A stretch of 64,000 nucleotides of DNA, taken from the IMG/VR virus record IMGVR_UViG_3300020434_000055. One strand, 5' to 3'. Under the pieces are notes generated by a model. It made no database searches and was not told the DNA's origin. It was given only the letters and a program-made list of their open reading frames with translations. Source of the DNA: a virus. Its lineage: Duplodnaviria > Caudoviricetes. Positions within the stretch are counted from its first letter, which is position 1, and each line of letters starts with the position of its first letter. This document shows, in pieces, positions 6,242 to 64,000 of this stretch. The translations under genes were made by a program, and so were the position numbers.

Positions 6242-7213
6242 ATGACTAAAAATAATCCAATATCTAGACCAAAAGCATTTTTTTTAAATGGAGGAATGGG
6301 CAGAATTATTTGTGCCATCCCTGCCCTTGAAAAATATTATGAAGAATCTGATGATAAAGATTTTATCATAGTAGTAGAAGGAATTCAAAATATTCTAAAT
6401 GGTCATCCAACTTTAGACGCTAGAACATATGATTATTCTCATAAAAATTTATTTCATACTAAACTTGTAAAAATGGATGTAGTAAGTTTAGAACCTTATA
6501 GAGTATGGGAATATTATAATCAAAAATGTAATATAATTCAAGCATTTGATATTTTAATTAATAATAAAGGTGTAAGAGAATTGCCTAAACCTAAAATTAA
6601 TTTGAGTAAAGAAGAATTAATGGCAGGAGAAAAAGCAATAAATGATATTAAAAAACAAATTAAAAAAGACAAAGTAATTATTATTCAACCCTTCGGTCGA
6701 GCAATTCAACAAATAGATAGTAGTTTTGTAGATAAATCTAACCGAAGTATGGAATTTAAAAATTTAAAAAATTTAATAAGAAAATTTCAGGAAAAAGATT
6801 ATGCAGTAGCTATAATGGCAGAATTTGGAATAGAATTTAAAGATGAAAAATATAAAGATGAAGTAGCAATGCCTGAAAAAATTGACTTAAGACAATGGAC
6901 AGCAATTATAAAATATGCTGATCAATTTTTAGGTTGTGACAGTGTAGGACAACATTTGTCTTATATAGTTGATACACCATGTACAGTTGTTATAGGACAA
7001 ACTTATCCTATTAACACATCATACCCTAAAACAAAAAATATTTCTATAATTGATATGGGACAACTAGAACGAGAATATGATCCAATAAGAATAACAGTAG
7101 ATGAAAGAGTTAGTAGACAAGGTGAAAAATTAATGTGGATGAGTAAAGAAATAGAAGATCTTGTTGTAAAAGTAGTATTAGGTGAAGAAACAATAGAGGA
7201 AGAAGATGAATAA
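6242..7213 (+). CDS. GT-B glycosyltransferase, GT9 (heptosyltransferase)-like, paralogue A
   Basis: N-terminal NGGMGRIICAIP, central IIIQPFG, C-terminal ADQFLGCDSVGQHLS...PCTVVIGQT (compare GT9 DSGxxHLA...PTVxLFGxT). Confidence 0.6.
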   Translation: MTKNNPISRPKAFFLNGGMGRIICAIPALEKYYEESDDKDFIIVVEGIQNILNGHPTLDARTYDYSHKNLFHTKLVKMDVVSLEPYRVWEYYNQKCNIIQAFDILINNKGVRELPKPKINLSKEELMAGEKAINDIKKQIKKDKVIIIQPFGRAIQQIDSSFVDKSNRSMEFKNLKNLIRKFQEKDYAVAIMAEFGIEFKDEKYKDEVAMPEKIDLRQWTAIIKYADQFLGCDSVGQHLSYIVDTPCTVVIGQTYPINTSYPKTKNISIIDMGQLEREYDPIRITVDERVSRQGEKLMWMSKEIEDLVVKVVLGEETIEEEDE

Positions 7214-9014
7214 AAAATCTGGATGGATTGCCGCAATTTCTAGAGGACATAATTCAGGAATATGTCTAATGAAAGATGGAGAAATTATTTTTGCAATTGA
7301 AGAAGAAAGATTATCAAGACACAAATATGATGGTGGTCCTTATATGAGTATGTTGGAAATATTAAAATATACAGACACTTTAGATTATTTAATTATAGCA
7401 CATACCCAACCATTAACTGATCCTTCTACTGGTAGAGTTGATTATACAGGTGATGATGTATATACAGGTTTAGCAAGAAAATTAGGATTGATAGATAGAA
7501 AAGTAGATTTAAAAAAACATCCTCAAGTAATAGATCTCAGTCATATTCATCACAAGTTACACGCCGCCTGTGCTTTTTATAGATCTGGATTTGATGAAGC
7601 GTGTGCGGTTATTTGTGATGGTGCAGGAACTTTTATGCCTATTAATAGTTCTCTTGTAGGTGATATGACAATGTTTGAAGTTGAATCTATATTTGATTGT
7701 TCTTATCCTAATAATATATTTACTGTATGGAAACATTATGGTACTGGTACAACATCTCCAGGTGCTCTTATGACACAACAATCAGACAAAATGGGAGAGC
7801 CTGGAAGAACTCATCAAGTATTATTGTCAGACAAGGCAGGAATTACTAAAGTTTATGAAGCAGTTACTCAATACTGTGGATTTTCTGCCATTGAAGCAGG
7901 AAAAACAATGGGATTATTTCCTTATGGAAAACCTAATGATAGAATCCCTAAACTTTTTCAACAAGAAGGAAGATTTTCACAATCTAATAGAAATGTAATT
8001 CTTCCTACATATCCAAATGCGGCTATAGTAAATGAACAAATGTATGAATATCTTAATAATGTACCTGAAAGTTGTTCTGATGTTTCTACATTAGATAATA
8101 GGAGAGATTTAGCATATGCTTGTCAAATAGAAACTCAAGCAGAATTATTAAAAGTAATTTACCAGGCTGTAAAAAGAACAGGTAGAAAAAATGTTGTATT
8201 ATCAGGTGGCTATGGATTAAATTGTGTAGCAAATTATTTTTATCTTGAATCTTTAAGAAAAGATGGAATTAATTTATTTGTTGAACCTGTGTCAAATGAC
8301 GCTGGAACAGCCATTGGAGCGGCTCTTTTATTTTATTATGCTTTGTCAGAGGATAAGACAAAAAGACCACTTACTACATTGTGTCAAGGTCCTGAAAGAA
8401 AATATACATTAGAACAAATACAAGAATTAACAAATAAAGAAGGTATTGAATTAGTAGATGCAAACGATAAAGATATAGTCAAATTAATGATAGAAAAAAA
8501 TATTGTTTCTATGTTTCAAGGAAAATCAGAGAGTGGACCTAGAGCATTAGGTAATAGAAGTATTTTATTTGATCCTACATTTAAAGATGGTAAAGATTTT
8601 GTTAATATAGTTAAACGTAGAGAATATTTTAGACCATTTGCAGGGTCTATATTACATGAACACGTACATGATTGGTTTGATTTAAGAGGAATGGAAGAAA
8701 GTCCTTTTATGATGTATGCTGTAAATTGTCAAGAAGGAATAGCAGAAAAAATTCCTAGCATTATACACATAGATGGTACTTGTAGAATACAAACAGTTAA
8801 AGAAGAACAAAATCCATTGTATTATAAATTAATTAAAGAGTTTTATGATCAAACAAAAATACCAATAGTGTTTAATACGTCATTTAATTTGGCAGGAGAA
8901 CCACTTGTAGAAACATTACAAGATGCTATATTAACTCTTGAACACTCTCTTTTAGAATATTTGTATCTTCCAGAATATGGAAAAATGATAAAGGTAAAAA
9001 ATGTCGAGAAATAG
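7206..9014 (+). CDS. O-carbamoyltransferase, NodU/CmcH/TobZ family
   Basis: All expected motifs present: GHNS...EEERLSR, HHKLHAACAF, CDGAG, GKTMGLFPYG, GGYGLNCVAN, NDAGTAIGAA, GPRALGNRSIL, KRREYFRPFA, HIDGTCRIQTV, NTSFNLAGEP. Confidence 0.93.
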   Translation: MNKKSGWIAAISRGHNSGICLMKDGEIIFAIEEERLSRHKYDGGPYMSMLEILKYTDTLDYLIIAHTQPLTDPSTGRVDYTGDDVYTGLARKLGLIDRKVDLKKHPQVIDLSHIHHKLHAACAFYRSGFDEACAVICDGAGTFMPINSSLVGDMTMFEVESIFDCSYPNNIFTVWKHYGTGTTSPGALMTQQSDKMGEPGRTHQVLLSDKAGITKVYEAVTQYCGFSAIEAGKTMGLFPYGKPNDRIPKLFQQEGRFSQSNRNVILPTYPNAAIVNEQMYEYLNNVPESCSDVSTLDNRRDLAYACQIETQAELLKVIYQAVKRTGRKNVVLSGGYGLNCVANYFYLESLRKDGINLFVEPVSNDAGTAIGAALLFYYALSEDKTKRPLTTLCQGPERKYTLEQIQELTNKEGIELVDANDKDIVKLMIEKNIVSMFQGKSESGPRALGNRSILFDPTFKDGKDFVNIVKRREYFRPFAGSILHEHVHDWFDLRGMEESPFMMYAVNCQEGIAEKIPSIIHIDGTCRIQTVKEEQNPLYYKLIKEFYDQTKIPIVFNTSFNLAGEPLVETLQDAILTLEHSLLEYLYLPEYGKMIKVKNVEK

Positions 9015-12662: not shown

Positions 12663-15600
12663 ATGGCTAAAAAGAAATTAAAAAATTATATATTTCAAAA
12701 AGGAATTCCTAAAACCGGGAATAACTATCCTATTGCTTGGAATCTACTTGATAAAAACGTAGAATATCTTAAAGATGAAATGTTAGGATATATTAAAGCC
12801 AGCTCAGCTAGAGATACTGCTATTAATTTATATCCTAATTTAGATTCTAGAATTACAAATAATAAAGAATATATTAAAGATGAAGTTGCATCTTGGGTTT
12901 CAGCACGAGTTATTCAAAATGTGGCACCATTTGCTGGTTATACAAAAGCGGCTAATGTTATAGAAGATGATGTTGATGCAGTAATAACTGCTGTTGCACG
13001 TGACGTTAGATATAATGGAAATGAACAAATAAGAGCACAAATAGAAACATATTTTATTGATGGAACACTTCAATTAGCTAATGGTGGCGATCCAGAAATA
13101 GCTTATCTAACTCAAGCTAGAACAATTATAACAGATTTCATTGCAACAGGAGCCACATATTCAAGTACTCAAAATGCAACAACTCAAGATCTAACAGGAT
13201 CAAATGGTGAATCAGGTGGAATAACTGAATTTACTACTAAAGCAAATCAAGTAATTGATACGATTGATAATGGAATTATACAAACTCCAGCTCTTTCTAG
13301 TAGCCCTTATGTATTTGAAAACTTTACTTACGATAAAAGTAAGTGCGATAGAGATTACCAATTTGTTTTAGATGCATTTTTAAATGATTTACGTTATAAT
13401 GGAAATAAATCAACAAGATATATTTCTTCTAAATTTTGGGTTGGATCAACACCTCAATTAGATGGAGATAGACAACCTGAAATACAAACACAATATTGGA
13501 TTAGAGATTTTATAAACAATTATATTTTTACTAATGTAGATGCTTCTAATCAATCTCCTAATGCAAGTACTATTATAAATGCTAATAAAGAATTTATAGG
13601 AGATGAAGTTGCGGCTTGGTTTGATGCAACATATCCAGGTGTTCATAGTCAAACAGAAATAGATAAGTGCGAAAGAGATTCTAAGTTTAATATCGAAGCA
13701 ATAGCACATGATATACAATATGGTGGTAATTCAGAAATAGTTAGAACAGCTAAAAAATATTGGGAAGGTGCCGCTTTAACATTATATCCAAATGAAAGAA
13801 CTTATGCAGTTGCAGTTAATAATAAAATAGAAGAAATTATTAATGGCTATATTCTTACTAATACTCCATGGACGTCATTACAAAGTCCAAGTGTAACTAT
13901 ACAAACAATGGGATCAGGTGAAGGTAGTGCTACTGCTAAAGTAACATCTTTCATCCAAATTCTTAATGCTGTAACATTAAATGGCGTAGGACAACTTCCA
14001 GTAGAAGTACATACTACTTCACATCAAGATCCTATAACTTCTGTTCAATTTACAGATGACAATACATCTGAAAGTCTAGCGTCTAATAGAATATCTACGC
14101 TTTCTTTTATTATTTCTGATGTAATGGAAAATGGATTAGATAATTTACCAGCTTTAGAAAGAAATGAAGTATCTAGTATAAGAGCAGTTGATCCAGCTGG
14201 AAAAATTAAACATGAAGATATTTTATTAGTTACTAATACTACAAGAAATACTGTATTATACAATTTTGCTGACCCTTCTATGGGTTGTGAAGTAGAATAT
14301 GACAGAGGACTAACTGGCAGTTCTCATACAGAGCTTGTTGAAGATACAGATTTTCCTTCTTTCTTAGAAGGTGCAGATACAATATCTACAATATTTTTTA
14401 ACGTAGATACTAGTACACACGAAAACACAGATAGTATACAAGCCTTTATAGAAGCTACAGAACTTAGAGTAAGACCATTTGATTTTGGTACAGATGCAAT
14501 TGAAAGATATAGAATTGCAAAACCTCAATCAATGATTGACGCTGACTTTGAGTATGGTCTTCAGCCAACAAAATGGCAAGCCATTTCAACACAAAGAGGT
14601 TATCCATCAATTTACGAAGTACCGGGTACAGATATTGACGTTGAATCAGTAACAACTGACGCATCAACTAGTACTCAAGGTATAGGTGCTTCATTAATAA
14701 CTGTAAACACAACAGGTCCTCATAACTTGGATGTTGGAGCTCCTATTTCAATTATAGGATTTGCAGGTTCAGGTGTAGAAGGTACAGGTAGAGCAACAGG
14801 ATCATTTGTTGTACATACTATTCCTACAAATAAACAATTAACTTATTATGCTAAAGCTAAAGTTGGTACTTCTGCTGGTGCAGTAATTTCTACAAAATTT
14901 ACTCAAATGCGTAGAGCCGCATTTTATACTGGGGCAGATTTAGGAGAACCAAGTTTTTCTGTTGCAAGTAATGGATCAAGTGGTGCTGTTGTTACATCAA
15001 TAGGCGCAATTCAAGGAGAAACAGTTTTAGCATTTACAGGAACACCTCCTCCTACTGGTGCACCTATTACTGGAACAGGTGTCGCAACAGGTACTCAAGT
15101 TACAGCGATTCAAGGAACAGGTGGAGCCATAGCAACACCAAAAATTAGTGGTGATTATGCCTCAGGAACATCACAAATAAATGTTGTTGATGCATCAGGT
15201 ATAGTTCAAAACTCTGTAATGGATAGAGGAGATGGTTATGCAACAACTATTATAAGTGTTGTAGGTCAAACTTTAGTTTTATCAACTCCATTAAATGGAG
15301 CTTTGATAGGTGATCAAACAGTTTATCCTGAAGTTGCTGGAACTAATGCAACGCCGGCAGGACTTGAGGCAACGTTTAATGTAACCTGGGCAGGTGGAAA
15401 CTATACTGTAACTCTTATTAATACTGGAAATGATTATGTAGTTGGAGATGCAATAGTTATTTTAGGAAATATGTTAAGTGGTACTACTCCTGAAAACGAT
15501 CTTATAATATCAGTAGATGAAGTAGATACTGCAGGAGAAATTCTTGCTTTTACATTTACAGGAGTCTCTTTTGGAGGAACAGGAAGTCTTTCAGGAATAA

Positions 15601-18600
15601 GTGGTACTGTAGCAGGTGGCACCGGAACAGGTGGAACATTTGCATTAACTAAAGATGCTGGAACATATACGATAGCATTAGAAGATAAAACTTACACAGG
15701 TCTTACAGCTACATACGCCGGTAATATATATACTGCTACTACTTGGGACATAACTGTATTAAATGGGGCTTATACTGTCCACACAGTAAACACTTCAGGA
15801 ACAGGACATATTGTAAACGATAAACTTGAAATTTCTGGAGGAAGTTTTGGTGGAAGTTCGGCTAATAATATAGTAATCACAGTTACCAGTGTAGATGGTA
15901 CAGGACAAATTACAGGACATACTATTGTAGGTACTGCTCCAGATATTATTGAATCATATATTAGTCCAGTATGGTCAACAGCAGGTGGTGGAACACTTGC
16001 AACTTTTACTATAACTAGAACAGGTACAGTATATACAGCACAAGTAACAACTCCTGGGGCTGGATTTGCAGTAAGTGATACTGTAGTAATTGATGGAGCA
16101 CTTTTAGGTGGTGCATCAACAACAAATGATTGTACTTTAACTATTAATACAATAGGTGGATCTGGTGACATTTTAACACTTACTCCAACAGGTACAGCAG
16201 TTAATACAAAAGATTTTACAGAAGTTTCTTCATCAGGTTATATAGGAACTGGAGCACAATTTAGTGTTACTAATGTAGTTGGGGCTACTACTTATAGTAG
16301 TATTACTGCAACATCATTAGGAGAAAAATATGGAATAGGACAAGAATTAATAATACTAGGATCAAGTTTAGGCGGTACTGACGGTGTACATGATTTAACT
16401 CTTGCATTAACAGGACCTTTAGGGGCCAATGATGCTGTAGTAGATCAACAATGGACAGACAGTGGTGCGGCACAACCAGGTCCTGAAACAAAAAATTATA
16501 CAGTAAATGATTTATTATTAGCTGGAGGAGTATCCTTAGGAGGTACAGCACCAACTAATGATGCATATGTTACAGTTACAAGTGTAGATGCAAATGGATC
16601 TATTACTGGTATGTCTATAGCAGGTACAGGAACAGATGCTAACGTAGATTATGTTAGTCCAGCATGGACAACATCAGGTTCAGGTGTAGATGCAACGTTT
16701 AGTGTAAACAGAACAGGAACAACATATTCAGTTTCAGTAACAGGTACAGGCTCAGGTTTTGCCGCAACAGATACAGTAACTTTTGCAGGAGATTTACTTG
16801 GTGGTGCTACAACTGCCAATGATTGTACTATTACAGTTGACTCAGTTAGTGCTGGAGCAATTGCTACAATAAGTGCCGCGGCAGGAACATCAGTAAACAC
16901 TCAAACTTTTTCACCAGCATCAATATCTGCAAGAGTAGGTACATCGGCCACTTTTGATGTTGACATAGCAGGTGGAAATTATACAGTATCTTTGAATCAA
17001 GGAGGATCAAATTATTGGGTTGGTCAAGAAATTACACTTCCTGGTACAATATTATATGGTAGTTCAACAGCAAATGATTTAGTAATTACTATTACAGCCA
17101 TTGATGCTGTTGCCACAGGTGTCATTACAACATTTAATTCGGCGGGAAGTGCCAATACTGGAACAGGTGGAATATCTACTGTTATGAGCGGTCAAAATAG
17201 AGCAATGACAGGAGTAGGTGGTACGTTTAGTGTAACAAGATCTTATTCAGAAGATTCTTCAACAACATATACTGAATGTCAAGTAACTTCTCCAGGTTCT
17301 AATTATAACGTAGGAGACAGACTTACTATATCAGGAGCAAGTTTAGGTGGAACTACACCAGCCAATGATCTCGAAGTTTTAGTTCAAGCAGTAAGTTCAG
17401 CAGGAGCCGTAACAGCAAATACTCACTCAGGTACTGCTATAGTAGGAACGGGTGTAACAGTTTATTCAAGTATAACGATATCTGATGCAACAACGACAAG
17501 TATTCCAAATGGAACTACATTAACTTATACTGCGATAGCAACTATGGAAGTAACTTTCTTAACTCCACATGGATTAGTTCCAGGTGCAGGATTCCTTGTA
17601 ACAATTGGATCTGATGACGGATCTAATAATCATATATTAGCATCAGGACCAGGTCTTGTTACAGAAATTCCTTCTCCTACGAAATTTAGATATCAGGTTA
17701 GATCTCCAGGAACAATTACAGATGCTCAATGGTCAGGATTCGTATATGTTAGACCAGATTCATTCTTTGTACATAGACCATTTGATGGAGGTGTTATGTT
17801 AGGAACAGGTGGACCACAACATGGTGCACAGGCGATAAGACAATCTAAAAAATATATTAGATATCAATCAGGTAAAGGTATTATGTATACAACAGGTGCC
17901 TTGTTTGCTCCATCTTATGATATTTTAAATGTTGTAGCAGATGGTAAAGCAGTAGGATCAGTAATAACAATTACTACAGATGAAATTGATCACGGACTAC
18001 AAGTTGGTGCAATAATAAAATTAATAGGAATAACACAACAAGAATATAATGATACCTATACAATAACTCAAATTATAAGTGAAAGAGTATTTAAAACTAC
18101 TGCACAAAGTACTTTAAGTATATTACAACCTGAATTTTCTGATCAACCTCAAGTATCATTAAAAAATTGGAATGGTGCAACAGTAAGATCAGGAATATTT
18201 GATGATCAAAACGGAATTTTTTGGGAATATGATGGTGTAAATCTTGCACTTACACAAAGAACAGCTACAAGACAATTAGCAGGTACAATTGCAGTAACAC
18301 CTGATTCTAATACAGTAAATGGTACAGGTACAAGATTTAGAGAACAATTAAAATCTGGTGATAGAATAGTAATAAGAGGTATGACTCACGTTGTATCGAA
18401 CGTTTCTTCTAACACAGAGATGTATGTAACTCCAGATTATAGAGGAGTTAATCCTTCTTCAGGTGTTAAAAGTTGTTTAATACTTGACAAAAAAACTAAA
18501 CAAAGTGACTGGAATTTAGATAAAGTAGATGGAACAGGACCTAGTGGTTATGATTTAGATGTCTCTAAGATGCAGATGGTAGGAATTCAAATGTCCTGGT

Positions 18601-20198
18601 ATGGTGCTGGATTTATTGATTACATGACAAGAGGTGGTGATGGTAACTTTATTTTCTGTCACAGAATGAGAAATTCTAACGTAAACACAGAAGCATATAT
18701 GAGAACAGGTAACCAACCTGTGCGTTATGAAGTTACAAATGAAGGTGCTAATGGTAAACTTTCAGCTGATATAAGTGCTGGAGAAACAACAATAAGACTA
18801 TTAGATACTTCATTCTTTCCACCAGCTGGCGGAACACTTTATATAGATAATGAAATTATTACATATACAGGAATTAACGGAAATAGATTAACAGGATGTA
18901 CTAGAGCAACTCAATTAACAAACTTTACTTCCGGTTCAATTAGATCATATTCAGCAGGAGCGGCGGCAGAACACTTTAGAAACACTGGAGTGGTATTAAT
19001 TAGTAATACATCAAGTCCAATTATATCACACTGGGGTTCATCTTATATAACAGATGGAGATTTTGATGAAGAACGTGGATATCTGTTTAGTTATTCAGCG
19101 ACAGCTTTAGCTTTATCAACTATAAGACAAACCGTGTTCCTAATAAGATTAGCACCGTCAATTGCAAATGCTTTAACTGGTGACCTGGGAGATAGAGACT
19201 TACTTAATAGAGCCCAATTGCTACTTGATGGTTTAGAAATAACATCTGAACCTACATCAGGTGCAGGTAATGGATCATTAGTTGTACAAGGAGTTATTAA
19301 TCCACAAAACTATCCATTAGATCCAAGTGATATAGGTTGGACGGGATTAACAGGAACAGCTCAAGGTGGTCAACCATCATTTGCCCAAATAGCGGCAGGT
19401 GGTTCGGTTAACTGGAACGGTGGAGCTACTCAAACTACACAAACAGCGGCAACATCGGCTATCATTACAACTGATGTAACAAACAACTGGTGGAACATGG
19501 GTTCTTGGTATAATAATTATTCATACTGGTTAAAAGAAGATGGCCCAGGTAACAATAATGGTTTCGCGGATAGAAATATTAAAGTAGGAGATAATGTAAG
19601 TGGTGGTAACTTTCCTGCAGGTACAGTTATTACAGAGCTTTATGAATATTCTTATTACTTCCTAGCATACTACAGTCAAAATCACGGTGGTATTCCTATG
19701 GCAACAACTATTACGTTTTCTATGGGTGGTGATTTAACTAATACAAACTACTTGTATATGGATCCTACTCAGTGGGAATCCTCAAATGCCACATCAGGTA
19801 CAGAATTGCAAGATACTAATTTCCCAGCTGGTACATCAGTTATTAGTGTGGATCCTAAAGCAAGATATGGTCCAGTAAGTACTGGTACAGAATATTACAA
19901 AGTAACGTTTTCACAAACGTCAACTGGAACAATTAATGCAGGTGCAAATGTTACGTTCTTATTTGGTAATCCACCATATGCACAACCGGGAGAAACGATC
20001 TTTTCATTCGTTGCACAACCGGGAGAAAGAGCAACATTATCACTTAATCAAATCAAGGAATTGACTAACACTACACTTGGTGGTCGAGGAGCATTTCCAA
20101 ATGGTCCAGATGCGTTAGCTATTAACGTATATAGAACAGCAGGTTCAGGTGATGTAGCTGGTACAGTTACATTACGTTGGTCAGAAGCTCAAGCGTAA
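12663..20198 (+). CDS. Giant (2511 aa) virion structural protein, Thr/Gly/Ser-rich
   Basis: Long ORF with N-terminal helical repeats, a SMIDADFEYGLQPTKW motif, eight internal GGTxPxND-type repeats and a C-terminal HRPFDGGV...RQSKKYIRYQSGKG region. Confidence 0.75.
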   Translation: MAKKKLKNYIFQKGIPKTGNNYPIAWNLLDKNVEYLKDEMLGYIKASSARDTAINLYPNLDSRITNNKEYIKDEVASWVSARVIQNVAPFAGYTKAANVIEDDVDAVITAVARDVRYNGNEQIRAQIETYFIDGTLQLANGGDPEIAYLTQARTIITDFIATGATYSSTQNATTQDLTGSNGESGGITEFTTKANQVIDTIDNGIIQTPALSSSPYVFENFTYDKSKCDRDYQFVLDAFLNDLRYNGNKSTRYISSKFWVGSTPQLDGDRQPEIQTQYWIRDFINNYIFTNVDASNQSPNASTIINANKEFIGDEVAAWFDATYPGVHSQTEIDKCERDSKFNIEAIAHDIQYGGNSEIVRTAKKYWEGAALTLYPNERTYAVAVNNKIEEIINGYILTNTPWTSLQSPSVTIQTMGSGEGSATAKVTSFIQILNAVTLNGVGQLPVEVHTTSHQDPITSVQFTDDNTSESLASNRISTLSFIISDVMENGLDNLPALERNEVSSIRAVDPAGKIKHEDILLVTNTTRNTVLYNFADPSMGCEVEYDRGLTGSSHTELVEDTDFPSFLEGADTISTIFFNVDTSTHENTDSIQAFIEATELRVRPFDFGTDAIERYRIAKPQSMIDADFEYGLQPTKWQAISTQRGYPSIYEVPGTDIDVESVTTDASTSTQGIGASLITVNTTGPHNLDVGAPISIIGFAGSGVEGTGRATGSFVVHTIPTNKQLTYYAKAKVGTSAGAVISTKFTQMRRAAFYTGADLGEPSFSVASNGSSGAVVTSIGAIQGETVLAFTGTPPPTGAPITGTGVATGTQVTAIQGTGGAIATPKISGDYASGTSQINVVDASGIVQNSVMDRGDGYATTIISVVGQTLVLSTPLNGALIGDQTVYPEVAGTNATPAGLEATFNVTWAGGNYTVTLINTGNDYVVGDAIVILGNMLSGTTPENDLIISVDEVDTAGEILAFTFTGVSFGGTGSLSGISGTVAGGTGTGGTFALTKDAGTYTIALEDKTYTGLTATYAGNIYTATTWDITVLNGAYTVHTVNTSGTGHIVNDKLEISGGSFGGSSANNIVITVTSVDGTGQITGHTIVGTAPDIIESYISPVWSTAGGGTLATFTITRTGTVYTAQVTTPGAGFAVSDTVVIDGALLGGASTTNDCTLTINTIGGSGDILTLTPTGTAVNTKDFTEVSSSGYIGTGAQFSVTNVVGATTYSSITATSLGEKYGIGQELIILGSSLGGTDGVHDLTLALTGPLGANDAVVDQQWTDSGAAQPGPETKNYTVNDLLLAGGVSLGGTAPTNDAYVTVTSVDANGSITGMSIAGTGTDANVDYVSPAWTTSGSGVDATFSVNRTGTTYSVSVTGTGSGFAATDTVTFAGDLLGGATTANDCTITVDSVSAGAIATISAAAGTSVNTQTFSPASISARVGTSATFDVDIAGGNYTVSLNQGGSNYWVGQEITLPGTILYGSSTANDLVITITAIDAVATGVITTFNSAGSANTGTGGISTVMSGQNRAMTGVGGTFSVTRSYSEDSSTTYTECQVTSPGSNYNVGDRLTISGASLGGTTPANDLEVLVQAVSSAGAVTANTHSGTAIVGTGVTVYSSITISDATTTSIPNGTTLTYTAIATMEVTFLTPHGLVPGAGFLVTIGSDDGSNNHILASGPGLVTEIPSPTKFRYQVRSPGTITDAQWSGFVYVRPDSFFVHRPFDGGVMLGTGGPQHGAQAIRQSKKYIRYQSGKGIMYTTGALFAPSYDILNVVADGKAVGSVITITTDEIDHGLQVGAIIKLIGITQQEYNDTYTITQIISERVFKTTAQSTLSILQPEFSDQPQVSLKNWNGATVRSGIFDDQNGIFWEYDGVNLALTQRTATRQLAGTIAVTPDSNTVNGTGTRFREQLKSGDRIVIRGMTHVVSNVSSNTEMYVTPDYRGVNPSSGVKSCLILDKKTKQSDWNLDKVDGTGPSGYDLDVSKMQMVGIQMSWYGAGFIDYMTRGGDGNFIFCHRMRNSNVNTEAYMRTGNQPVRYEVTNEGANGKLSADISAGETTIRLLDTSFFPPAGGTLYIDNEIITYTGINGNRLTGCTRATQLTNFTSGSIRSYSAGAAAEHFRNTGVVLISNTSSPIISHWGSSYITDGDFDEERGYLFSYSATALALSTIRQTVFLIRLAPSIANALTGDLGDRDLLNRAQLLLDGLEITSEPTSGAGNGSLVVQGVINPQNYPLDPSDIGWTGLTGTAQGGQPSFAQIAAGGSVNWNGGATQTTQTAATSAIITTDVTNNWWNMGSWYNNYSYWLKEDGPGNNNGFADRNIKVGDNVSGGNFPAGTVITELYEYSYYFLAYYSQNHGGIPMATTITFSMGGDLTNTNYLYMDPTQWESSNATSGTELQDTNFPAGTSVISVDPKARYGPVSTGTEYYKVTFSQTSTGTINAGANVTFLFGNPPYAQPGETIFSFVAQPGERATLSLNQIKELTNTTLGGRGAFPNGPDALAINVYRTAGSGDVAGTVTLRWSEAQA
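15350..17450 (+). repeat. Eight degenerate protein-level repeats (roughly 80-120 aa spacing) in the giant structural protein
   Basis: Recurring (L/I)xxxGxxLGGxxxxND(L/C)x(I/V)T(V/I): LSGTTPENDL, FGGSSANNI, LGGASTTNDC, LGGTDGVHDL, LGGTAPTNDA, LGGATTANDC, LYGSSTANDL, LGGTTPANDL. Boundaries are approximate. Confidence 0.75.
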
Positions 20199-54377: not shown

Positions 54378-55661
54378 ATGCAAAAAATCACAATAGAAGA
54401 GTGTTTAGAGATGATCGTAGGGTTGGGCGAAGAAGCCATAAACCCACCTTTTATATTGTTAAACAAGGACAAAAAAATACTAACTGATATTGCTAAAAAG
54501 GTTTATCGAGGAACAGCATTAACTGATAGACAATATGCTGTAATAAAAAAGCTTCTAGTTAATAATTATTCTACCCAATTTAAAAACAGAAAAATTGACA
54601 TTCACGTATCATCTACGATGTTGCGTAAAACATTACGACAAATAGATAGAAGTTCTTATATTAAAATTGGAAAATACAAAGACCATATATACAATCCTTT
54701 TGGATATGATACTTATAACGTAGATAAAGTTATTATAGTAAGATTTCCATTTAATATAGTTCTTAGTAAACTTATAGGAGAAATTAAAAAACTTTTTCCT
54801 TTACAAAGTTATTCTTCTAAAAGAAATGATAAAAACAAATATATATTTCCTTATACAGAACGCATAGCTTATAAAATAATTGATAGGTTTAAAAATAAAA
54901 TAAAAGATATAGATCCTTTATTATTAGAAATTCACAAACAATGTGAAGAAATAGATATTAATAAAGAAAAATATCTTCCTGGAATTTATGATTATAAAAT
55001 AAAATATTGTTCACCTAAAATATCTCAATTCTATACAGAAAAATTTGGTAACCCAGATTTAAGTAATCTTTATTTGTATAAAGATAGAAGTGAATATCTT
55101 GGATTAAAACATTTTAATAATGCACATCTTGAAGAATCATTAAAGCCATTAGATGATTATACACAAAAAATTGTTATGCGTAAAACGTCAGTAATTACTT
55201 GTGATAAGAAAAAATGGAACCCTTTCCAAATAATTAAGACAATGTTTACTTTAAAAAGACTTCCTTTATTAATTGTTTTACCTGTATTTCCTAAACAAAG
55301 TCCTATTAATAATTTAATTCAATCCTTTAATATTTTAAAGAATTTTGTCAATCCAAAAGACATTTCGGTTTTGTTTAGATTAGAAAACGTTAACGATGGT
55401 ATCGCATTTAACGAATTTGTACGAGATAATGGTCTCAATAATAAACTTGCAAATAATACAAAAATAGTGTACATTAATAATAAAAAGATTCCAAAACCTT
55501 TATTGAAATCTAGCTGGAGACCTGAAGGAGTATTATGTCTAGATACTACAAGGAATTACAGCAAAGTAAATCAGTTTGAGGAAGAATTTGATTTGGTTAT
55601 TCAATATAGTAGCGAGGAACATACTCCTTGGAATCCTTATTTTGTTGTAGAAAGCATATGA
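54378..55661 (+). CDS. Hypothetical protein upstream of helicase
   Basis: Long Lys/Ile-rich ORF. ATG 54378 is preferred because the track's TTG start lies inside the promoter. ATGA overlap with the helicase. Confidence 0.55.
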   Translation: MQKITIEECLEMIVGLGEEAINPPFILLNKDKKILTDIAKKVYRGTALTDRQYAVIKKLLVNNYSTQFKNRKIDIHVSSTMLRKTLRQIDRSSYIKIGKYKDHIYNPFGYDTYNVDKVIIVRFPFNIVLSKLIGEIKKLFPLQSYSSKRNDKNKYIFPYTERIAYKIIDRFKNKIKDIDPLLLEIHKQCEEIDINKEKYLPGIYDYKIKYCSPKISQFYTEKFGNPDLSNLYLYKDRSEYLGLKHFNNAHLEESLKPLDDYTQKIVMRKTSVITCDKKKWNPFQIIKTMFTLKRLPLLIVLPVFPKQSPINNLIQSFNILKNFVNPKDISVLFRLENVNDGIAFNEFVRDNGLNNKLANNTKIVYINNKKIPKPLLKSSWRPEGVLCLDTTRNYSKVNQFEEEFDLVIQYSSEEHTPWNPYFVVESI

Positions 55662-57112
55662 GTTGCAGAATTATTATAAGTGATGAGGTAAACATAAAAA
55701 TAGAAGGTTTACCTGTAGACGTAAGAAGAAAAATAGCAAATACTTTAAAATGGGAAGTCCCATACGCAAGATATCTTCCACAATATAAATTAGGAAGATG
55801 GGATGGTAAAATTGGTTTCTTTGGTTTAGGGGGCAGTGGATATGTTAATCATATAGATAAAATTATCGATTTACTTCAAAAACAAGGAGTACAAGTAGAC
55901 GAAATTGACGACAAAAGAAAGAAATATGATTTAAAATTTGCACCAATAGATAAAAATTATTTTGGAAATAAGACTTGGCCTAAAGGTCATATTTGTGAAG
56001 GACAAAAAATTGTACTTCGCGACTATCAAGTAGAGGTTGTTAATAATTTTATAAAAGTACCTCAATCACTTCAAGAAGTTGCCACTGGTGCAGGTAAAAC
56101 AATTGTTACTGCTTGTTTATCTAGTTTATGTGAAAGGCTTGGACGAACTGTAGTAATAGTACCTAACAAAAGTTTAGTTACACAAACTGAAGAAGATTAT
56201 ATTAATGTAGGTCTAGACGTAGGCGTATACTTTGGTGATCGTAAAGAATTAAACAAAACTCATACTATATGTACTTGGCAATCTTTAAATGTATTAGATA
56301 AAAAAGCAAAAGAAGGAACATCAGTTCTTACACTTTCACAATTTTTAAGTGGTGTACAAACATTAATAATAGATGAAGTACATCAAGCAAAAGCGGATGT
56401 TTTAAAAAAATTATTGACACATCATTTAAAAAATTCTCCAGTAAGATGGGGATTAACAGGAACAATTCCAAAAGAACAATTTGAATTTCAAAGTTTATTA
56501 GTTGCTATAGGTCCTGTTATTAATCAAATATCTGCAAAAGAATTACAGGATAAAGGCATACTTTCTAAATGTCATGTTAATGTAGTACAATTAATTGATA
56601 CTGAAGTGCATAGAACATATCAAGAAGAATTAAAATATTTGGTTACAACTCCTGGCAGATTAAAATATATAGCAAAACTTATAAGCAAAATTAAAGACAC
56701 AGGGAATACACTTATATTAATAGATAGATTAATTGCTGGAGAAAAATTATCAAAATTAATTCCTGATAGTGTTTTTATTAAAGGAGAAACAAAATTACAA
56801 GATAGAAAAGATCAATATGATGAAATTTCTAGTGCAAACAATAAAGTAATAGTTGCAACATATGGCGTTGCATCTATTGGTATTAACATACCTAGAATAT
56901 TTAATTTAGTATTAATAGAAGCAGGTAAATCATTTATAAGAGTTATACAATCAATTGGCAGAGGCATACGAAAGGCACAAGACAAAAATTTTGTACAAAT
57001 ATGGGATATAACATCATCTTGTAAGTTTGCTAAAAGACATCTTACACGAAGAAAGAAATTTTATAAAGAAGCAGAGTATCCTTTCACAGTAGAAAAAGTA
57101 CAATGGAATTAG
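55658..57112 (+). CDS. uvsW: SF2 DNA helicase
   Basis: LRDYQ, VATGAGKT, DEVH, GLTGT, VATYGVASIGINIP, QSIGRGIR, HL..RKKFY..AEY. Confidence 0.85.
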   Translation: MSCRIIISDEVNIKIEGLPVDVRRKIANTLKWEVPYARYLPQYKLGRWDGKIGFFGLGGSGYVNHIDKIIDLLQKQGVQVDEIDDKRKKYDLKFAPIDKNYFGNKTWPKGHICEGQKIVLRDYQVEVVNNFIKVPQSLQEVATGAGKTIVTACLSSLCERLGRTVVIVPNKSLVTQTEEDYINVGLDVGVYFGDRKELNKTHTICTWQSLNVLDKKAKEGTSVLTLSQFLSGVQTLIIDEVHQAKADVLKKLLTHHLKNSPVRWGLTGTIPKEQFEFQSLLVAIGPVINQISAKELQDKGILSKCHVNVVQLIDTEVHRTYQEELKYLVTTPGRLKYIAKLISKIKDTGNTLILIDRLIAGEKLSKLIPDSVFIKGETKLQDRKDQYDEISSANNKVIVATYGVASIGINIPRIFNLVLIEAGKSFIRVIQSIGRGIRKAQDKNFVQIWDITSSCKFAKRHLTRRKKFYKEAEYPFTVEKVQWN

Positions 57113-59497: not shown

Positions 59498-59625
59498 TGA
59501 CAACAAATACTACTAAAACATATGCCAAAGGAAGATATCGTATAAAACAATATTATACTGATCAGAATTTATGGAAAACAACAAAAACTCTTATTAAAAA
59601 GAAGAAACCTAAAAAGAAAAAATGA
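59497..59625 (+). CDS. Small Lys-rich protein (42 aa), not in ORF track
   Basis: MTTNTTKTYAKGRYRIKQYYTDQNLWKTTKTLIKKKKPKKKK; TAATG and ATGA overlaps on both sides. Confidence 0.55.
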   Translation: MTTNTTKTYAKGRYRIKQYYTDQNLWKTTKTLIKKKKPKKKK

Positions 59626-59915
59626 AAAATATTAAAGTAAAAATTGAAGTATTTCGAAGCATGGATTTAGATTTCATGCAAGTTAAAGAATGGATTATTA
59701 GTTTATATCCTAATACTTTAACAATAAAAGATAGAACTTGTGAATCTATTGCTGACGAATTGTTTATGGAAATACAAAAGAAATATCCAAAAAGAGATGT
59801 TCTAATAGAGGTTACTGATGAAAGTGATTGTGGTTCATCAGCATTATATCCTAAAGATCCAATTAATATTTTTAATCCAAATCAAAAAACCATAGTTATA
59901 AAATGCCAGATATAG
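59622..59915 (+). CDS. Degenerate QueD/PTPS-like (T-fold) protein lacking the His motif
   Basis: IEVF...DLDFMQVKEWI..LY...TCESIADEL...YP.R.V.IEV..E..CG resembles the C-terminal half of phage QueD-like proteins. Confidence 0.4.
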   Translation: MKNIKVKIEVFRSMDLDFMQVKEWIISLYPNTLTIKDRTCESIADELFMEIQKKYPKRDVLIEVTDESDCGSSALYPKDPINIFNPNQKTIVIKCQI

Positions 59916-60481
59916 ATATAGACTTTGCAGATAGATCTATTTTATTAGATAAAGTTAAACACAGAATTGCTAAATTAGATTCTGGTAAGAAACATAATAC
60001 TGGTGTATACTTTACAGAAGTACCACACGATCCAGTAAACAATTTATGTACACTTGATTATGAACAAGCAGAAAAAAGAGGATATTTTAAAATAGATTGT
60101 CTGAACGTTAGCATTTATAAAGATATTAAAGATGAAAAACATCTTAATAAATTAATGAATACAGAACCATTGTGGGAATTATTAGAAGCAAAAGAGTTTG
60201 TAGATCAAATTTTTCATATTAATGGACACGTAGAAATATTAAAAAAACTTAAACCTACAAACATAGAACAATTAGCGGCAGTTTTAGCAATTATACGACC
60301 AGCAAAAAGACATTTGATTAAACAAAATTGGGATGAAATAGATGAACAAGTATGGAAAAAACCTACAGACGGAAGTTACTTTTTTAAAAAATCTCACGCA
60401 ACTTCATATGCAATGGCAGTAGTAGTGCATATGAATCTTATATGCGAACAATTAAAAGGAAATAATGACCAAAAGTCATAA
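59903..60481 (+). CDS. Miniature DNA polymerase III alpha (DnaE)-like protein
   Basis: PDIDIDF, KHNTG, GYFKIDCLNV, KP..IEQLAAVLAIIRP and YFFKKSHATSYA match DnaE palm/finger motifs, all within 192 aa. Confidence 0.75.
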   Translation: MPDIDIDFADRSILLDKVKHRIAKLDSGKKHNTGVYFTEVPHDPVNNLCTLDYEQAEKRGYFKIDCLNVSIYKDIKDEKHLNKLMNTEPLWELLEAKEFVDQIFHINGHVEILKKLKPTNIEQLAAVLAIIRPAKRHLIKQNWDEIDEQVWKKPTDGSYFFKKSHATSYAMAVVVHMNLICEQLKGNNDQKS

Positions 60482-60755
60482 AAAAAGAAGTCTAGTTAAA
60501 ACTCTTACATGGAGAATTTTGGCAACTACAGATACATTTTTAATAAGTTGGCTTATTACAGGTGCAATAACTTTAGCAGGTGCTATTGCAGGTATAGAAG
60601 TCGTAACTAAAATGGTTTTATATTACCTACACGAAAGAGGATGGAATAAAATTAAATGGGCAAAAGAACCTGGACCTGAAGAACATACAACTATATTTCC
60701 TTATTTTGATTTTCCACATGAACTTCCAAGTTCAAAACATGATAAGAAAGATTAA
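60465..60755 (+). CDS. DUF2061-like small membrane protein
   Basis: RSLVKTLTWR...T..ISWLITG...IAGIE...K..LYY.HER.W..I.W. Confidence 0.75.
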   Translation: MTKSHKKRSLVKTLTWRILATTDTFLISWLITGAITLAGAIAGIEVVTKMVLYYLHERGWNKIKWAKEPGPEEHTTIFPYFDFPHELPSSKHDKKD

Positions 60756-61165
60756 TTTTCTTTTTCTTTTGCTTTTGCAATATGTCGTTCAATAAAATCT
60801 CTAGGTTTTCTAACTAATTGAACTGATCTTCTTTTTGTTCTTTTTACAGCAAGGTTGTTTAAATTAGTAATGTGCCCCATTTTTACTGTAACATCTTTAG
60901 TATTCATTATCATTAAAATTTCCCTATAGGATGACATTTCTTTTCTTAAAAATATACCAATAGGAATCATTCTATTAGACTCCCACCACCATGTTTTGCA
61001 CAAAGCAACAAAGTCTGCTTTTTGTGTATCAGTTTTAAGGTCTTGATATATGTACATACTGGTGATTGCGTGGTCCTGATTGTTGATTACGCCGACATAT
61101 TCTTTGCCGCCGTACTCTACTACGCTGATGAATGGAAAGTCTTTCTTTATGTCCTCTTTAATCAT
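60752..61165 (-). CDS. Hypothetical protein
   Basis: 137 aa, convergent with the DUF2061 gene; FPFISVVEYGGKEYVGVI...WWWESNR.IPI. Confidence 0.6.
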   Translation of the reverse strand: MIKEDIKKDFPFISVVEYGGKEYVGVINNQDHAITSMYIYQDLKTDTQKADFVALCKTWWWESNRMIPIGIFLRKEMSSYREILMIMNTKDVTVKMGHITNLNNLAVKRTKRRSVQLVRKPRDFIERHIAKAKEKEN

Positions 61166-61203: not shown

Positions 61204-61989
61204 ATGCAACTTATACGAAGATATTTATTAAATAATAGAATAGTGCTTACTGCGAATTTGGCAGGAGAGGTAACGAGGTATAGATCCGTGTATCAAAGAA
61301 ATGTAAATGTTTATAGAAATATCGACAATGTCCTTCAATTTGAAGTTAAAAATGCTGACGAAAAGGCTGTAAGTATCCTTAATACCTACACACCTAAGTT
61401 TAAAATGTGGGATGAAAACAGCACTCTTGTTGTTGAAAAAGATGGAACAGTTATAGAAACATCTACCCCTAACAAAGTAGGTCAATTTACTGTAAATGTA
61501 AGCGAAAATGATCTATTAAATCTTAAATCACAATACCTACGTTATAGTATCTACTTGTATAATACAAGTACTACTGAAAACGTTTTAACTTATCCTAATA
61601 CACATTTTGCAAGTCAAGGAACAGTATTTCTTGATACAAAAGAATTCCCAGGACCAAAAGATTCACATTCAGTTGCAACGTTTGTTCAAGCACAAAATGA
61701 CCCTGCTATATGGAATTCATCTACTGTTAATGCAGAACCAACTATAAATGGAAATTCAGCTCTTCATACAGTAGCATACTATACTACAGATGCTGAAGGC
61801 ACACTAACAGTTCAAGGTACTTTAGACAATCAAGTTGGTGCTGGAACAAATTGGACAGATATAAATGTAACCAATTTAGTTGCCGCAGACACACTTCAAT
61901 ATGTAAATTTTAATGGCGTGTTTAGTCATCTAAGATTTAGCCATGAAATAACTGCTGGTACAATAGACAAAATATTAGTTCGAAATTAA
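61204..61989 (+). CDS. Hypothetical virion-like beta-sandwich protein
   Basis: 261 aa with upstream AATAAATA (61176-61183). Confidence 0.55.
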   Translation: MQLIRRYLLNNRIVLTANLAGEVTRYRSVYQRNVNVYRNIDNVLQFEVKNADEKAVSILNTYTPKFKMWDENSTLVVEKDGTVIETSTPNKVGQFTVNVSENDLLNLKSQYLRYSIYLYNTSTTENVLTYPNTHFASQGTVFLDTKEFPGPKDSHSVATFVQAQNDPAIWNSSTVNAEPTINGNSALHTVAYYTTDAEGTLTVQGTLDNQVGAGTNWTDINVTNLVAADTLQYVNFNGVFSHLRFSHEITAGTIDKILVRN

Positions 61990-62024: not shown

Positions 62025-63008
62025 ATGAATATCGTTTATGATGCATTATTAATTCACTTACCCCAAAAAAGAAAACAAACACCTAGCGGATGGCTATCTT
62101 TTAATGCTCCATGTTGTCAACATATGGGAACGACAGCTGATACAAGACAACGAGGAGGCTTAATTGGTAGTGCAGATGAAGGTATAAGCTACCATTGTTT
62201 TAATTGTGGCTTTACAGCAAGTTGGAGAGTTGGTAGAAATTTATCATATAAAATGAAAAAGTTCATGAGATGGCTTAATATGCCAGATGAACAAATTACT
62301 AAATTGGCATTAGCAGTTTTACAAATCAAAACAGATACAGTAGGATATCAAGCAATAACCCAATTACCAAAATTTAAGAACAAAGAACTTCCTGACGGAG
62401 CAAAACCATTACACGAATGGACAGAGCAAGACAAATACTTTTATAAAGTTTTAGAATATGTGGACAAAAGAAGTTTAAAGTTAGTTGATTATGAGTTTTA
62501 TTGGTCTAATAATAGTGGTTACAGAGATAGATTAATCATTCCTTTTTATTATCAATCACGTATAGTAGGGTATACTGCTAGAAGAGTTACCCACACAGAT
62601 AAAGTAAAATATCTATCTGAACAACAGCCAGGATACGTTTTTAACATTGATGCCCAAGATGATGATAGAAAATATGTAATAGCAGTAGAAGGACCTATAG
62701 ATGCAATTACTATAGATAGTGTTGCACTATTAGGAAGTGAAGTTAAAGATCAACAATCTGTATTATTAAACAGTTTAGGTAAGCACGTTATAGTAGTACC
62801 TGATAGAGATGACGCTGGACAAAAGCTAGTTCAAGATGCTCTGAACTTGGGATGGAGCGTGAGTATGCCTGATTGGGATCATGATATTAAAGATATTTCT
62901 GACGCTGTTGGTAAATACGGTCGACTACATACGTTGTATGCAATTATAAAAAACGCACAGGACTCACAATTAAAGATAAAGTTAAGGATGAAAAAATGGT
63001 TTATATAA
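62025..63008 (+). CDS. DNA primase (T4 gp61-like, zinc finger + TOPRIM)
   Basis: NAPCCQH...YHCFNCG zinc finger, RLIIPFY...GYTAR, VEGPIDA, VPDRDDAG, KDISD. Confidence 0.85.
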   Translation: MNIVYDALLIHLPQKRKQTPSGWLSFNAPCCQHMGTTADTRQRGGLIGSADEGISYHCFNCGFTASWRVGRNLSYKMKKFMRWLNMPDEQITKLALAVLQIKTDTVGYQAITQLPKFKNKELPDGAKPLHEWTEQDKYFYKVLEYVDKRSLKLVDYEFYWSNNSGYRDRLIIPFYYQSRIVGYTARRVTHTDKVKYLSEQQPGYVFNIDAQDDDRKYVIAVEGPIDAITIDSVALLGSEVKDQQSVLLNSLGKHVIVVPDRDDAGQKLVQDALNLGWSVSMPDWDHDIKDISDAVGKYGRLHTLYAIIKNAQDSQLKIKLRMKKWFI

Positions 63009-63122: not shown

Positions 63123-64000
63123 ATGATAATTTGGGGAATAACAGGTAACAGTCACGATGCCAGTCTAGCAGTAATGAAGTGGAGTCCTAATGGTTTAACA
63201 GATCATTATACACTTAAACTTCTTTGGGCAGGACTCTCTAGAGATTTTAGTGGTAAACCTGGAGATCCTACTTTAAGCAATAGGATGTTAGCTCATGTAA
63301 GATCAAATGCATTATGGGCCCACCCAGCAAAAATTATTTGGTATGAAAAACCATTTTTAAAAAGTTTACGACAACTATGGGCAGGTCAAGGATTCACATT
63401 TACAGAAAATAATATTAAAGAATTTTTACGAACAAAAGGAATATTTCAACCTGTTGAATATGCAAAACATCATCATAGTCATGCGGCATACGGATATTTT
63501 ACTTCACCTTTTTCTGAAAAAAATGCCGCAATAGTTGTACTAGACAGTATAGGAGAGTTTCAAACATTTACTATTTGGCATGGCAAAGGGGATCATTTAA
63601 AACAAGTATACTCACAAAGTTATCCGCATAGTGTTGGATTATTTTATAGTGCTATGACACAACGAATAGGATTTAAAGCTAACGCAGAAGAACATAAAAC
63701 AGAACGACTTGCTAAAAAAGGCAACTGGAGAGTTCACTATAGAAAATTTATGGAAGAAATAGTTTTATCAAAATTGCCTTTTAAATTAAGAGAAAATTTA
63801 CATAGAGGAGCTAATTGGTGGAGACCTGAATTAAATTCAGAAGAAGATTTAGCCAACATAGCGGCAACTACTCAAAAGATTTTTGAACAAACATTAGTTT
63901 GTATTAGTAGCTGGTGTCAAATGCATATTAAGGCGAGCAATATAGTTTTTGTAGGTGGGTGTGCATTAAACAAAAGTGCAATAAAACATTTGGAACACAT
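63123..64000 (+). CDS. Second NodU-family carbamoyltransferase, 3'-truncated by window end
   Basis: Hand translation from ATG 63123 (AGGA SD) is open to the window end: IWGITGNSHDASLAV, HHHSHAAYGYFTSPF, VLDSIGE, YPHSVGLFYS..TQRIGF..N.EEHK, NIAA.TQ..FE, GGCALN. Confidence 0.85.
   Translation, partial: MIIWGITGNSHDASLAVMKWSPNGLTDHYTLKLLWAGLSRDFSGKPGDPTLSNRMLAHVRSNALWAHPAKIIWYEKPFLKSLRQLWAGQGFTFTENNIKEFLRTKGIFQPVEYAKHHHSHAAYGYFTSPFSEKNAAIVVLDSIGEFQTFTIWHGKGDHLKQVYSQSYPHSVGLFYSAMTQRIGFKANAEEHKTERLAKKGNWRVHYRKFMEEIVLSKLPFKLRENLHRGANWWRPELNSEEDLANIAATTQKIFEQTLVCISSWCQMHIKASNIVFVGGCALNKSAIKHLEH

Follow-up and report, generated by a model that had tools for sequence, protein, structure and literature searches.

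How can an open reading frame (ORF) of 192 amino acids carry the catalytic motifs of DnaE, the alpha subunit of bacterial DNA polymerase III (Pol III), and is its product an enzyme, a part of an enzyme or a relic? The question is raised by a gene in an AT-rich (32% G+C) viral sequence of 64 kb, which is referred to here, at its full length, as the window. We favor the reading, at a probability of roughly 85%, that the product of the ORF is the C-terminal one of two subunits of a stripped-down family C nucleotidyltransferase from a marine T4-like jumbo phage of ~356 kb. Below, the product of this ORF and its homologs are called the C-half, and the complementary N-terminal unit is called the N-half.

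An intact gene in a conserved jumbo-phage locus

The genes of the window considered here are the following:

7206–9014, forward strand: carbamoyltransferase-like gene (phrog_1601, 'Nol-like carbamoyltransferase', E = 2e-161)
12663–20198, forward strand: virion structural protein, 2511 aa (phrog_5838, E = 1e-234)
55628–57112, forward strand: SF2 DNA helicase (ResIII/DEAD/Helicase_C; phrog_16, E = 6e-73)
59622–59915, forward strand: upstream gene, 97 aa, phrog_17812 of unknown function, with no GRGS motif and not a DnaE piece
59903–60481, forward strand: C-half ORF, 192 aa, predicted to be the C-terminal unit, binding metal and template, of a split mini Pol III alpha
60465–60755, forward strand: downstream gene, DUF2061 predicted membrane protein, 96 aa (PF09834, E = 1.5e-23)
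60752–61165, reverse strand: gene of unknown function, 137 aa (phrog_11637, E = 4.9e-35)
61204–61989, forward strand: virion structural protein (phrog_14467), used as a syntenic marker
62025–63008, forward strand: DnaG-type primase (Toprim_2; phrog_47, E = 1.9e-38)
63123–63998, forward strand: second carbamoyltransferase-like gene, read by eye from its translation and running off the end of the window

The C-half gene has its own ATG and stop codon and is coupled to both neighbors, as originally described: the ATG lies 13 nucleotides (nt) inside the end of the upstream ORF, and the downstream ORF begins 17 nt ahead of the C-half stop. An in-frame stop nine codons 5′ of the ATG (stop-to-stop frame from 59876) means that no longer reading of the ORF is hidden there. 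Selection on the gene was estimated by the Nei–Gojobori method against IMG/VR orthologs, a check that had been proposed when the ORF was first noticed, and yielded dN/dS values of 0.14–0.18 where dS was unsaturated and of ~0.07–0.15 at higher divergence, with no internal stop in any of the homologs compared. The protein was found identical on 30 contigs, the longest being 355,620 base pairs (bp), and its 90% cluster takes in hundreds of Tara, JGI or ENA contigs; one member of this cluster is present on 358 contigs, and some members carry the name 'DNA polymerase III alpha subunit'. A HMMER search over 1.84 billion representatives recovered 431 cluster representatives at E ≤ 1e-3, among which the full-length C-half homologs are almost all 183–216 aa long; the exception, a protein of 375 aa, is taken up below.

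A protein so short beside DnaE might be a decaying remnant or an assembly artifact of a full-length dnaE. Both are excluded by the dN/dS values of 0.14–0.18 and the stop-free homologs, and finding the identical protein on 30 separate contigs means that no assembly error masks a full-length dnaE, a concern that had been voiced at the outset. Further points against a remnant or artifact are the 431 representative clusters with their nearly uniform length, a start of the form M(P/F)D(I/V)DID that is kept in 76 IMG/VR loci and the in-frame stop upstream of it. We assign this explanation next to no probability: the C-half gene is real and under selection, and the initial judgment that it is not a frameshifted remnant is borne out. 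A scan for promoters and terminators was uninformative, promoter-like sites being rarer than in shuffled sequences and terminators being absent.

The locus is shared with cultured jumbo phages. The order helicase, C-half, reverse-strand gene, virion protein and primase, with further genes between helicase and C-half, is common to the window, Sinorhizobium phage Phosso (in which the DNA helicase lies ~6.5 kb upstream of the C-half) and Pseudomonas phage PA5oct, and Agrobacterium phage Atu_ph07, 121Q and Kaldavass share the part of this order that starts at the C-half and ends at the virion protein. The virion structural gene is equally placed in Phosso, PA5oct, Atu_ph07, 121Q and Kaldavass. In these same five phages, a reverse-strand hypothetical gene also stands directly 3′ of the C-half. 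In the window, the DUF2061 gene separates the C-half from this conserved reverse-strand gene; it is missing at the equivalent position in Phosso, PA5oct, Atu_ph07 and 121Q and, judged by this comparison of gene order, is a lineage-specific insertion at the C-half locus. Structural genes of the window include a 1082-aa tail sheath, the large terminase and tail fibers. The search for a family B polymerase, also proposed at the outset, gave a divided result, with such an enzyme being present in Phosso and in the related IMG/VR contig G001 and none being found among the window ORFs scanned.

Homology to family C and the missing palm segment

The motifs named in the original prediction (PDIDID, KID, LA...RP and F.KSHA..YA) are all present in the 192-aa ORF, in the order in which they occur in DnaE. 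Together with a further conserved strand, they are located as follows:

59906–59926, forward strand: P2-DIDID-F8, first palm strand of the C-half, with metal-binding D3 and D5, plus D7
59993–60010, forward strand: H31-NTGVY36, conserved strand with which the palm continues past the missing DnaE thumb (model strand 30–36)
60089–60097, forward strand: K63-I64-D65, third catalytic Asp and adjacent Lys (model strand 64–68)
60272–60301, forward strand: L124-AAVLAIIRP133, fingers helix ending in an invariant Arg-Pro
60377–60412, forward strand: Y159-FFKKSHATSYA170, fingers motif

The catalytic residues of Escherichia coli Pol III alpha are D401, D403 and D555. In our alignments, M1-PDIDIDF of the C-half corresponds to MPDFDVDF at E. 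coli positions 399–406 (D3, D5 and D7 matching D401, D403 and D405), F62-KID-C66 to VKFDF at 552–556 (K63 matching K553 and D65 matching D555), LAAVLAIIRP to MIALVALFRP, of which the last residue is 640, and YFFKKSHATSYA to YGFNKSHSAAYA at 754–765 (K163-S-H165 matching K758-S-H760). The strand with H31 is one that we take to be the counterpart of the DnaE 'HAAGVVI' motif.

Conservation was assessed on 72 diverse homologs that are 29–61% identical to the 192-aa query. Six residues (D3, D5, K63, D65, R132 and P133) are invariant in 72/72 sequences, and D7, A23, H31, G34, Y36, P41, W91, P118, A125, I131, L138, K162, H165 and A170 are conserved in at least 90%. The placing of the third catalytic Asp in KID is thus upheld, both K63 and D65 being aligned with their E. 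coli counterparts and invariant, and the three catalytic Asp residues, whose conservation had been in question, do not vary in this set.

The PDB chains matched by a profile built from the 72 homologs were all of Pol III alpha, including those of E. coli (5fku, E = 4.7e-5), Mycobacterium tuberculosis and Thermus aquaticus. On E. coli alpha, the profile aligns in three collinear blocks (399–418, 539–641 and 740–770). A phmmer search of PDB sequences placed C-half residues 1–12, 90–137 and 157–172 on residues 413–424, 618–666 and 773–788 of M. tuberculosis DnaE1, respectively. Pfam scores were lower than the curated thresholds: PF17657 (DNA_pol3_finger) matched residues 88–135 weakly, at 18.6 bits where the cut-off is 22, PF07733 (DNA_pol3_alpha) was not reported for the 192-aa protein, and the C-half of the relative G001 reached 15.1 bits for PF07733 against a cut-off of 23.9. 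The homology of the C-half to family C is real, although it falls below the Pfam gathering cut-offs. The same Pfam scan of the 192-aa protein gave no PHP, OB or clamp-binding match, in agreement with the initial description.

Structural comparison led to the same family. An AlphaFold (AF2) model of the C-half built on the 72-sequence alignment reached a pLDDT of 96.1 and a pTM of 0.88; the single-sequence fold was unusable (pLDDT 35.7). The model contains strands at residues 4–8, 21–24, 30–36 and 64–68, followed by a helical module. With this model as the query, each of the top 13 Foldseek matches was to Pol III alpha, the best at E = 1.4e-4, and the top 15 VIA matches were all family C, with Z scores from 9.8 to 6.1 and 174–192 residues aligned. 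The best of these was Taq Pol III alpha (3e0d, Z = 9.8, 190/192 residues aligned on chain positions 461–869), with further scores of 9.6 for 5lew, 9.4 for PolC (3f2b) and 8.8 for 2hnh (chain 400–784), whereas the best unrelated chain scored 3.4. The superposition on the DnaE palm that had been suggested as a check therefore places the model with family C only.

The C-half starts exactly at the palm strand with the DxD metal ligands. This strand is followed by a short hairpin in place of the DnaE thumb, by the strand with the Lys and the third Asp and by a reduced helical fingers module that carries the Arg-Pro and KSH motifs. With DnaE (E. coli 2hnh and 5fku, T. aquaticus 2hpi and 3e0d, M. tuberculosis 5lew) and PolC (3f2b), the C-half therefore has in common a Pol-beta-like palm with DxD and K-x-D and fingers helices with RP and KSH, all collinear (Z = 8.8–9.8 with 184–190 residues aligned), but it is without the PHP domain, the GRGS half of the palm, the thumb, much of the fingers and the clamp-binding/HhH and OB domains. 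Its 192 residues correspond to the region from E. coli 400 to ~813, ending before the clamp-binding and OB domains, and the E. coli segments ~419–538 (thumb region) and ~642–739 (fingers) have no counterpart in it.

Also absent from the C-half is the preceding helix-strand of the palm that bears the GRGS triphosphate-binding loop; a motif search found GRGS neither in the C-half ORF nor elsewhere in the 64-kb window. Without this nucleotide-binding segment, the 192 residues amount to only about half of a catalytic domain. The original prediction of a 'minimal family-C polymerase core' was correct as regards the three Asp residues and the palm and fingers fold, and was overstated in that the GRGS segment of the palm is missing. 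The confidently predicted solo fold points to a compact unit and is silent on the need for a partner.

The conservation pattern also bears on whether the protein is catalytic at all. As a DnaE-derived fragment in a phage with family B replication (going by the family B enzymes of G001 and Phosso), it might instead act as a non-catalytic decoy or modulator that, by binding DNA or parts of the host replisome, would for example poison or redirect host Pol III, and the literature searched holds no biochemical or experimental work on any member of the family. Across 29–61% identity, however, it is above all the metal-binding D3, D5 and D65, with K63 and R132, that are invariant, and these are residues that a decoy would not need. 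In addition, the PHP domain, the clamp-binding motif and the C-terminal domains are all absent, only the region from E. coli 400 to ~813 being kept, with internal deletions; it is in those absent parts that DnaE has its surfaces for the clamp, tau and epsilon. We consider a decoy role highly improbable.

A probable partner encoded at a distance in relatives

The segment that the C-half lacks is found in its relatives as a gene of its own. Searching whole phage records with PF07733, we located the N-halves at the following positions relative to the C-halves:

Phosso: N-half at 97.2 kb, C-half at 321.3 kb
PA5oct: N-half at 187.8 kb, C-half at 144.0 kb
Atu_ph07: N-half at 240.8 kb, C-half at 58.3 kb
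121Q: N-half at 44.5 kb, C-half at 13.3 kb
Kaldavass: N-half at 138.7 kb, C-half at 172.4 kb
IMG/VR contig G001 (236.8 kb): N-half at 183.5 kb, C-half at 61.2 kb
IMG/VR contig G006 (275.4 kb): N-half at ~117 kb, C-half at 237.8 kb

Both halves are thus present in 5/5 complete cultured jumbo phage genomes and in 2/2 IMG/VR contigs of >230 kb. In these seven genomes, the N-half is a separate gene for a protein of ~180 aa that lies 31–224 kb from the C-half, and smaller contigs (92–168 kb) carry one half only, as is expected from this spacing. The two halves are exactly complementary in G001, since its N-half matches PF07733 positions 20–95 and its C-half positions 96–196. At the sequence level, the N-half of six genomes ends in ...G(V/L)GRGS...(D/E)EFL(K/N/R/E), in some cases followed by a last W, and the C-half opens with the conserved M(P/F)D(I/V)DID; the break point is identical in the six relatives in which both ends were read (all but G006).

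No N-half was detected in the 64-kb window, either by tblastn with the Phosso and G001 N-halves or by a search for GRGS and FERFL motifs, and at 80 IMG/VR loci the 3 kb around the C-half held none (0/80). The initial remark that there is no adjacent complementary fragment was accordingly accurate. The suggested search for other DnaE pieces came up empty in the window and succeeded in the relatives, where a separate N-half was found in 7/7 of those tested.

The exceptional 375-aa homolog, P0096, holds both halves in one polypeptide, whereas the window protein is a C-half alone. Its residues 15–180 align to the G001 N-half (31% identity, E = 9e-23) and its residues 189–370, in which every motif is kept, to the window protein (36% identity, E = 2e-37); only an eight-residue linker separates the two, and the PF07733 match runs over the junction. 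P0096 is a singleton, encoded on an ENA contig of 2.4 kb of marine or environmental origin, and has no relatives in IMG/VR. By the gene-fusion argument, here from a single sequence, this natural fusion suggests that the N-half and C-half act as one enzyme. The portion of Iyer et al. 2021 (PMC7824862) that we drew on describes split forms only. A second longer homolog, P0151 (350 aa), was set aside, having no DxD part and an unrelated N-terminus; a chimera or another kind of fusion is its probable nature.

In the N-half of G001 (L084:1174–1728, ~185 aa), the PF07733 match is confined to the last ~75 residues. The ~110 residues before them are matched by no Pfam family and are conserved as far as P0096, with the alignment beginning at residue 6. 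These first ~110 residues may form an undescribed domain that replaces the missing DNA-binding parts.

These observations weigh on the idea of a stand-alone miniature nucleotidyltransferase or polymerase, in which the 192 residues would be catalytically sufficient and the N-half irrelevant to function. The gene's own start and stop, the lack of a nearby partner (none in the window and none less than 3 kb away at 80 IMG/VR loci), the presence and invariance of all three Asp residues and the compact, confident model all suit it. Yet the helix-strand with GRGS is the other half of the palm and directly precedes the DxD strand in DnaE (an equivalence that rests on the split of PF07733 into positions 20–95 and 96–196), and the C-half is without it. 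Moreover, the missing segment is a separate gene in 7/7 sufficiently complete genomes, broken at an identical point in six, and is fused to the C-half in P0096. We therefore regard a self-sufficient C-half as very unlikely. Two possibilities had been put forward for this ORF: that of a stand-alone nucleotidyltransferase with a new role finds no support, in view of the missing GRGS half and its co-occurrence as a separate gene in 7/7 genomes, and that of a split-polymerase subunit is supported by the distant N-half genes and the fused 375-aa form.

A proposed two-piece enzyme and its place among known polymerases

In the two-subunit reading that we favor, the N-half and C-half would join, with no covalent bond between them, to form a single Pol-beta-like palm whose active site is complete and in which the N-half would hold the phosphates of the incoming nucleotide and the C-half would hold two Mg2+ ions and the template. 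The assembled enzyme, which lacks PHP, thumb, clamp-binding and OB domains and hence is likely to be a non-processive accessory, would probably carry out short-patch synthesis beside a family B replicative polymerase. Gap filling, repair or primer extension are possible roles, in keeping with the functions considered by Iyer et al. 2021 (PMC7824862).

A variant of this proposal is that the two-piece mini Pol III is a nucleotidyltransferase that uses assembly as a switch, or one that acts on something beyond a DNA primer, for instance in counter-defense or nucleotide signaling. Assembly could serve as a switch because the halves lie in separate, distant transcription units. We hold this variant to be unlikely.

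If the two-subunit enzyme is active, its total of ~375 aa would make it the smallest active family C catalytic module. A working polymerase of this size would be a minimal model for how the active site of the bacterial replicase is built, and would bear on the proposal that the versions found in phages are similar to ancestral ones. The one natural fusion and the invariant break point offer a concrete design for reconstitution.

The gene in the window is a member of a kind already described computationally. Iyer, Anantharaman, Krishnan, Burroughs and Aravind (Iyer et al. 2021, Viruses 13:63, PMC7824862) described, from sequence, a Pol III alpha of jumbo phages of 'group 2.2' that is both minimal and split, and suggest that it may cooperate with the family B enzyme in one-strand synthesis or repair. 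The window ORF fits the C-terminal (Mg2+- and template-binding) unit of that account. Novelty of the system as such can thus not be claimed, the more so as public annotation already names homologs as DNA polymerase or DnaE-like. The PA5oct omics paper does not mention the family.

The 192-aa protein matches phrog_11778 ('DNA polymerase') at E = 4.6e-62, with residues 3–183 aligned to positions 8–194 of a profile of 197. A tblastn search against 50,697 phage records returned 96 matching records, each with at least 80% of the query covered; among the 40 matching records listed, 39 are 284–490 kb long and one is 94 kb. In this search, identity to the window protein was 52% for Phosso, 49.5% for the Pseudomonas PA5oct group and 49% for Atu_ph07, and ~38% for Rak2-like coliphages and their Erwinia or Salmonella relatives. 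Some of the phage records annotate the homolog as 'DnaE-like DNA polymerase III alpha' or 'DNA polymerase'. Such labels set an annotation trap, as a 192-aa phage 'DNA polymerase III alpha' is, on the reading that we favor, neither a fragment nor a whole enzyme and would instead be a single subunit of a split mini-enzyme, with a partner that in relatives is encoded at a distance of tens to hundreds of kb.

Split mini Pol III is very common in ocean viromes, with ~500 or more IMG/VR relatives of each half: at least 545 for the C-half and 494 for the N-half. The N-half further accounts for at least 7,993 clusters at 90% identity, of which most of those listed carry PF07733 and several are named 'DNA polymerase III alpha subunit' by JGI.

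Set beside the split Pol III alpha of group 2.2 (phrog_11778), the window protein agrees in size, in matching over its full length, in starting at DxD and in its probable jumbo myovirus context with conserved synteny, and its relatives agree in having a distant N-half and a companion family B polymerase. It differs in belonging to an uncultured AT-rich marine phage, in being 38–52% identical to the cultured members and in having the DUF2061 gene inserted directly downstream; nothing substantive sets it apart.
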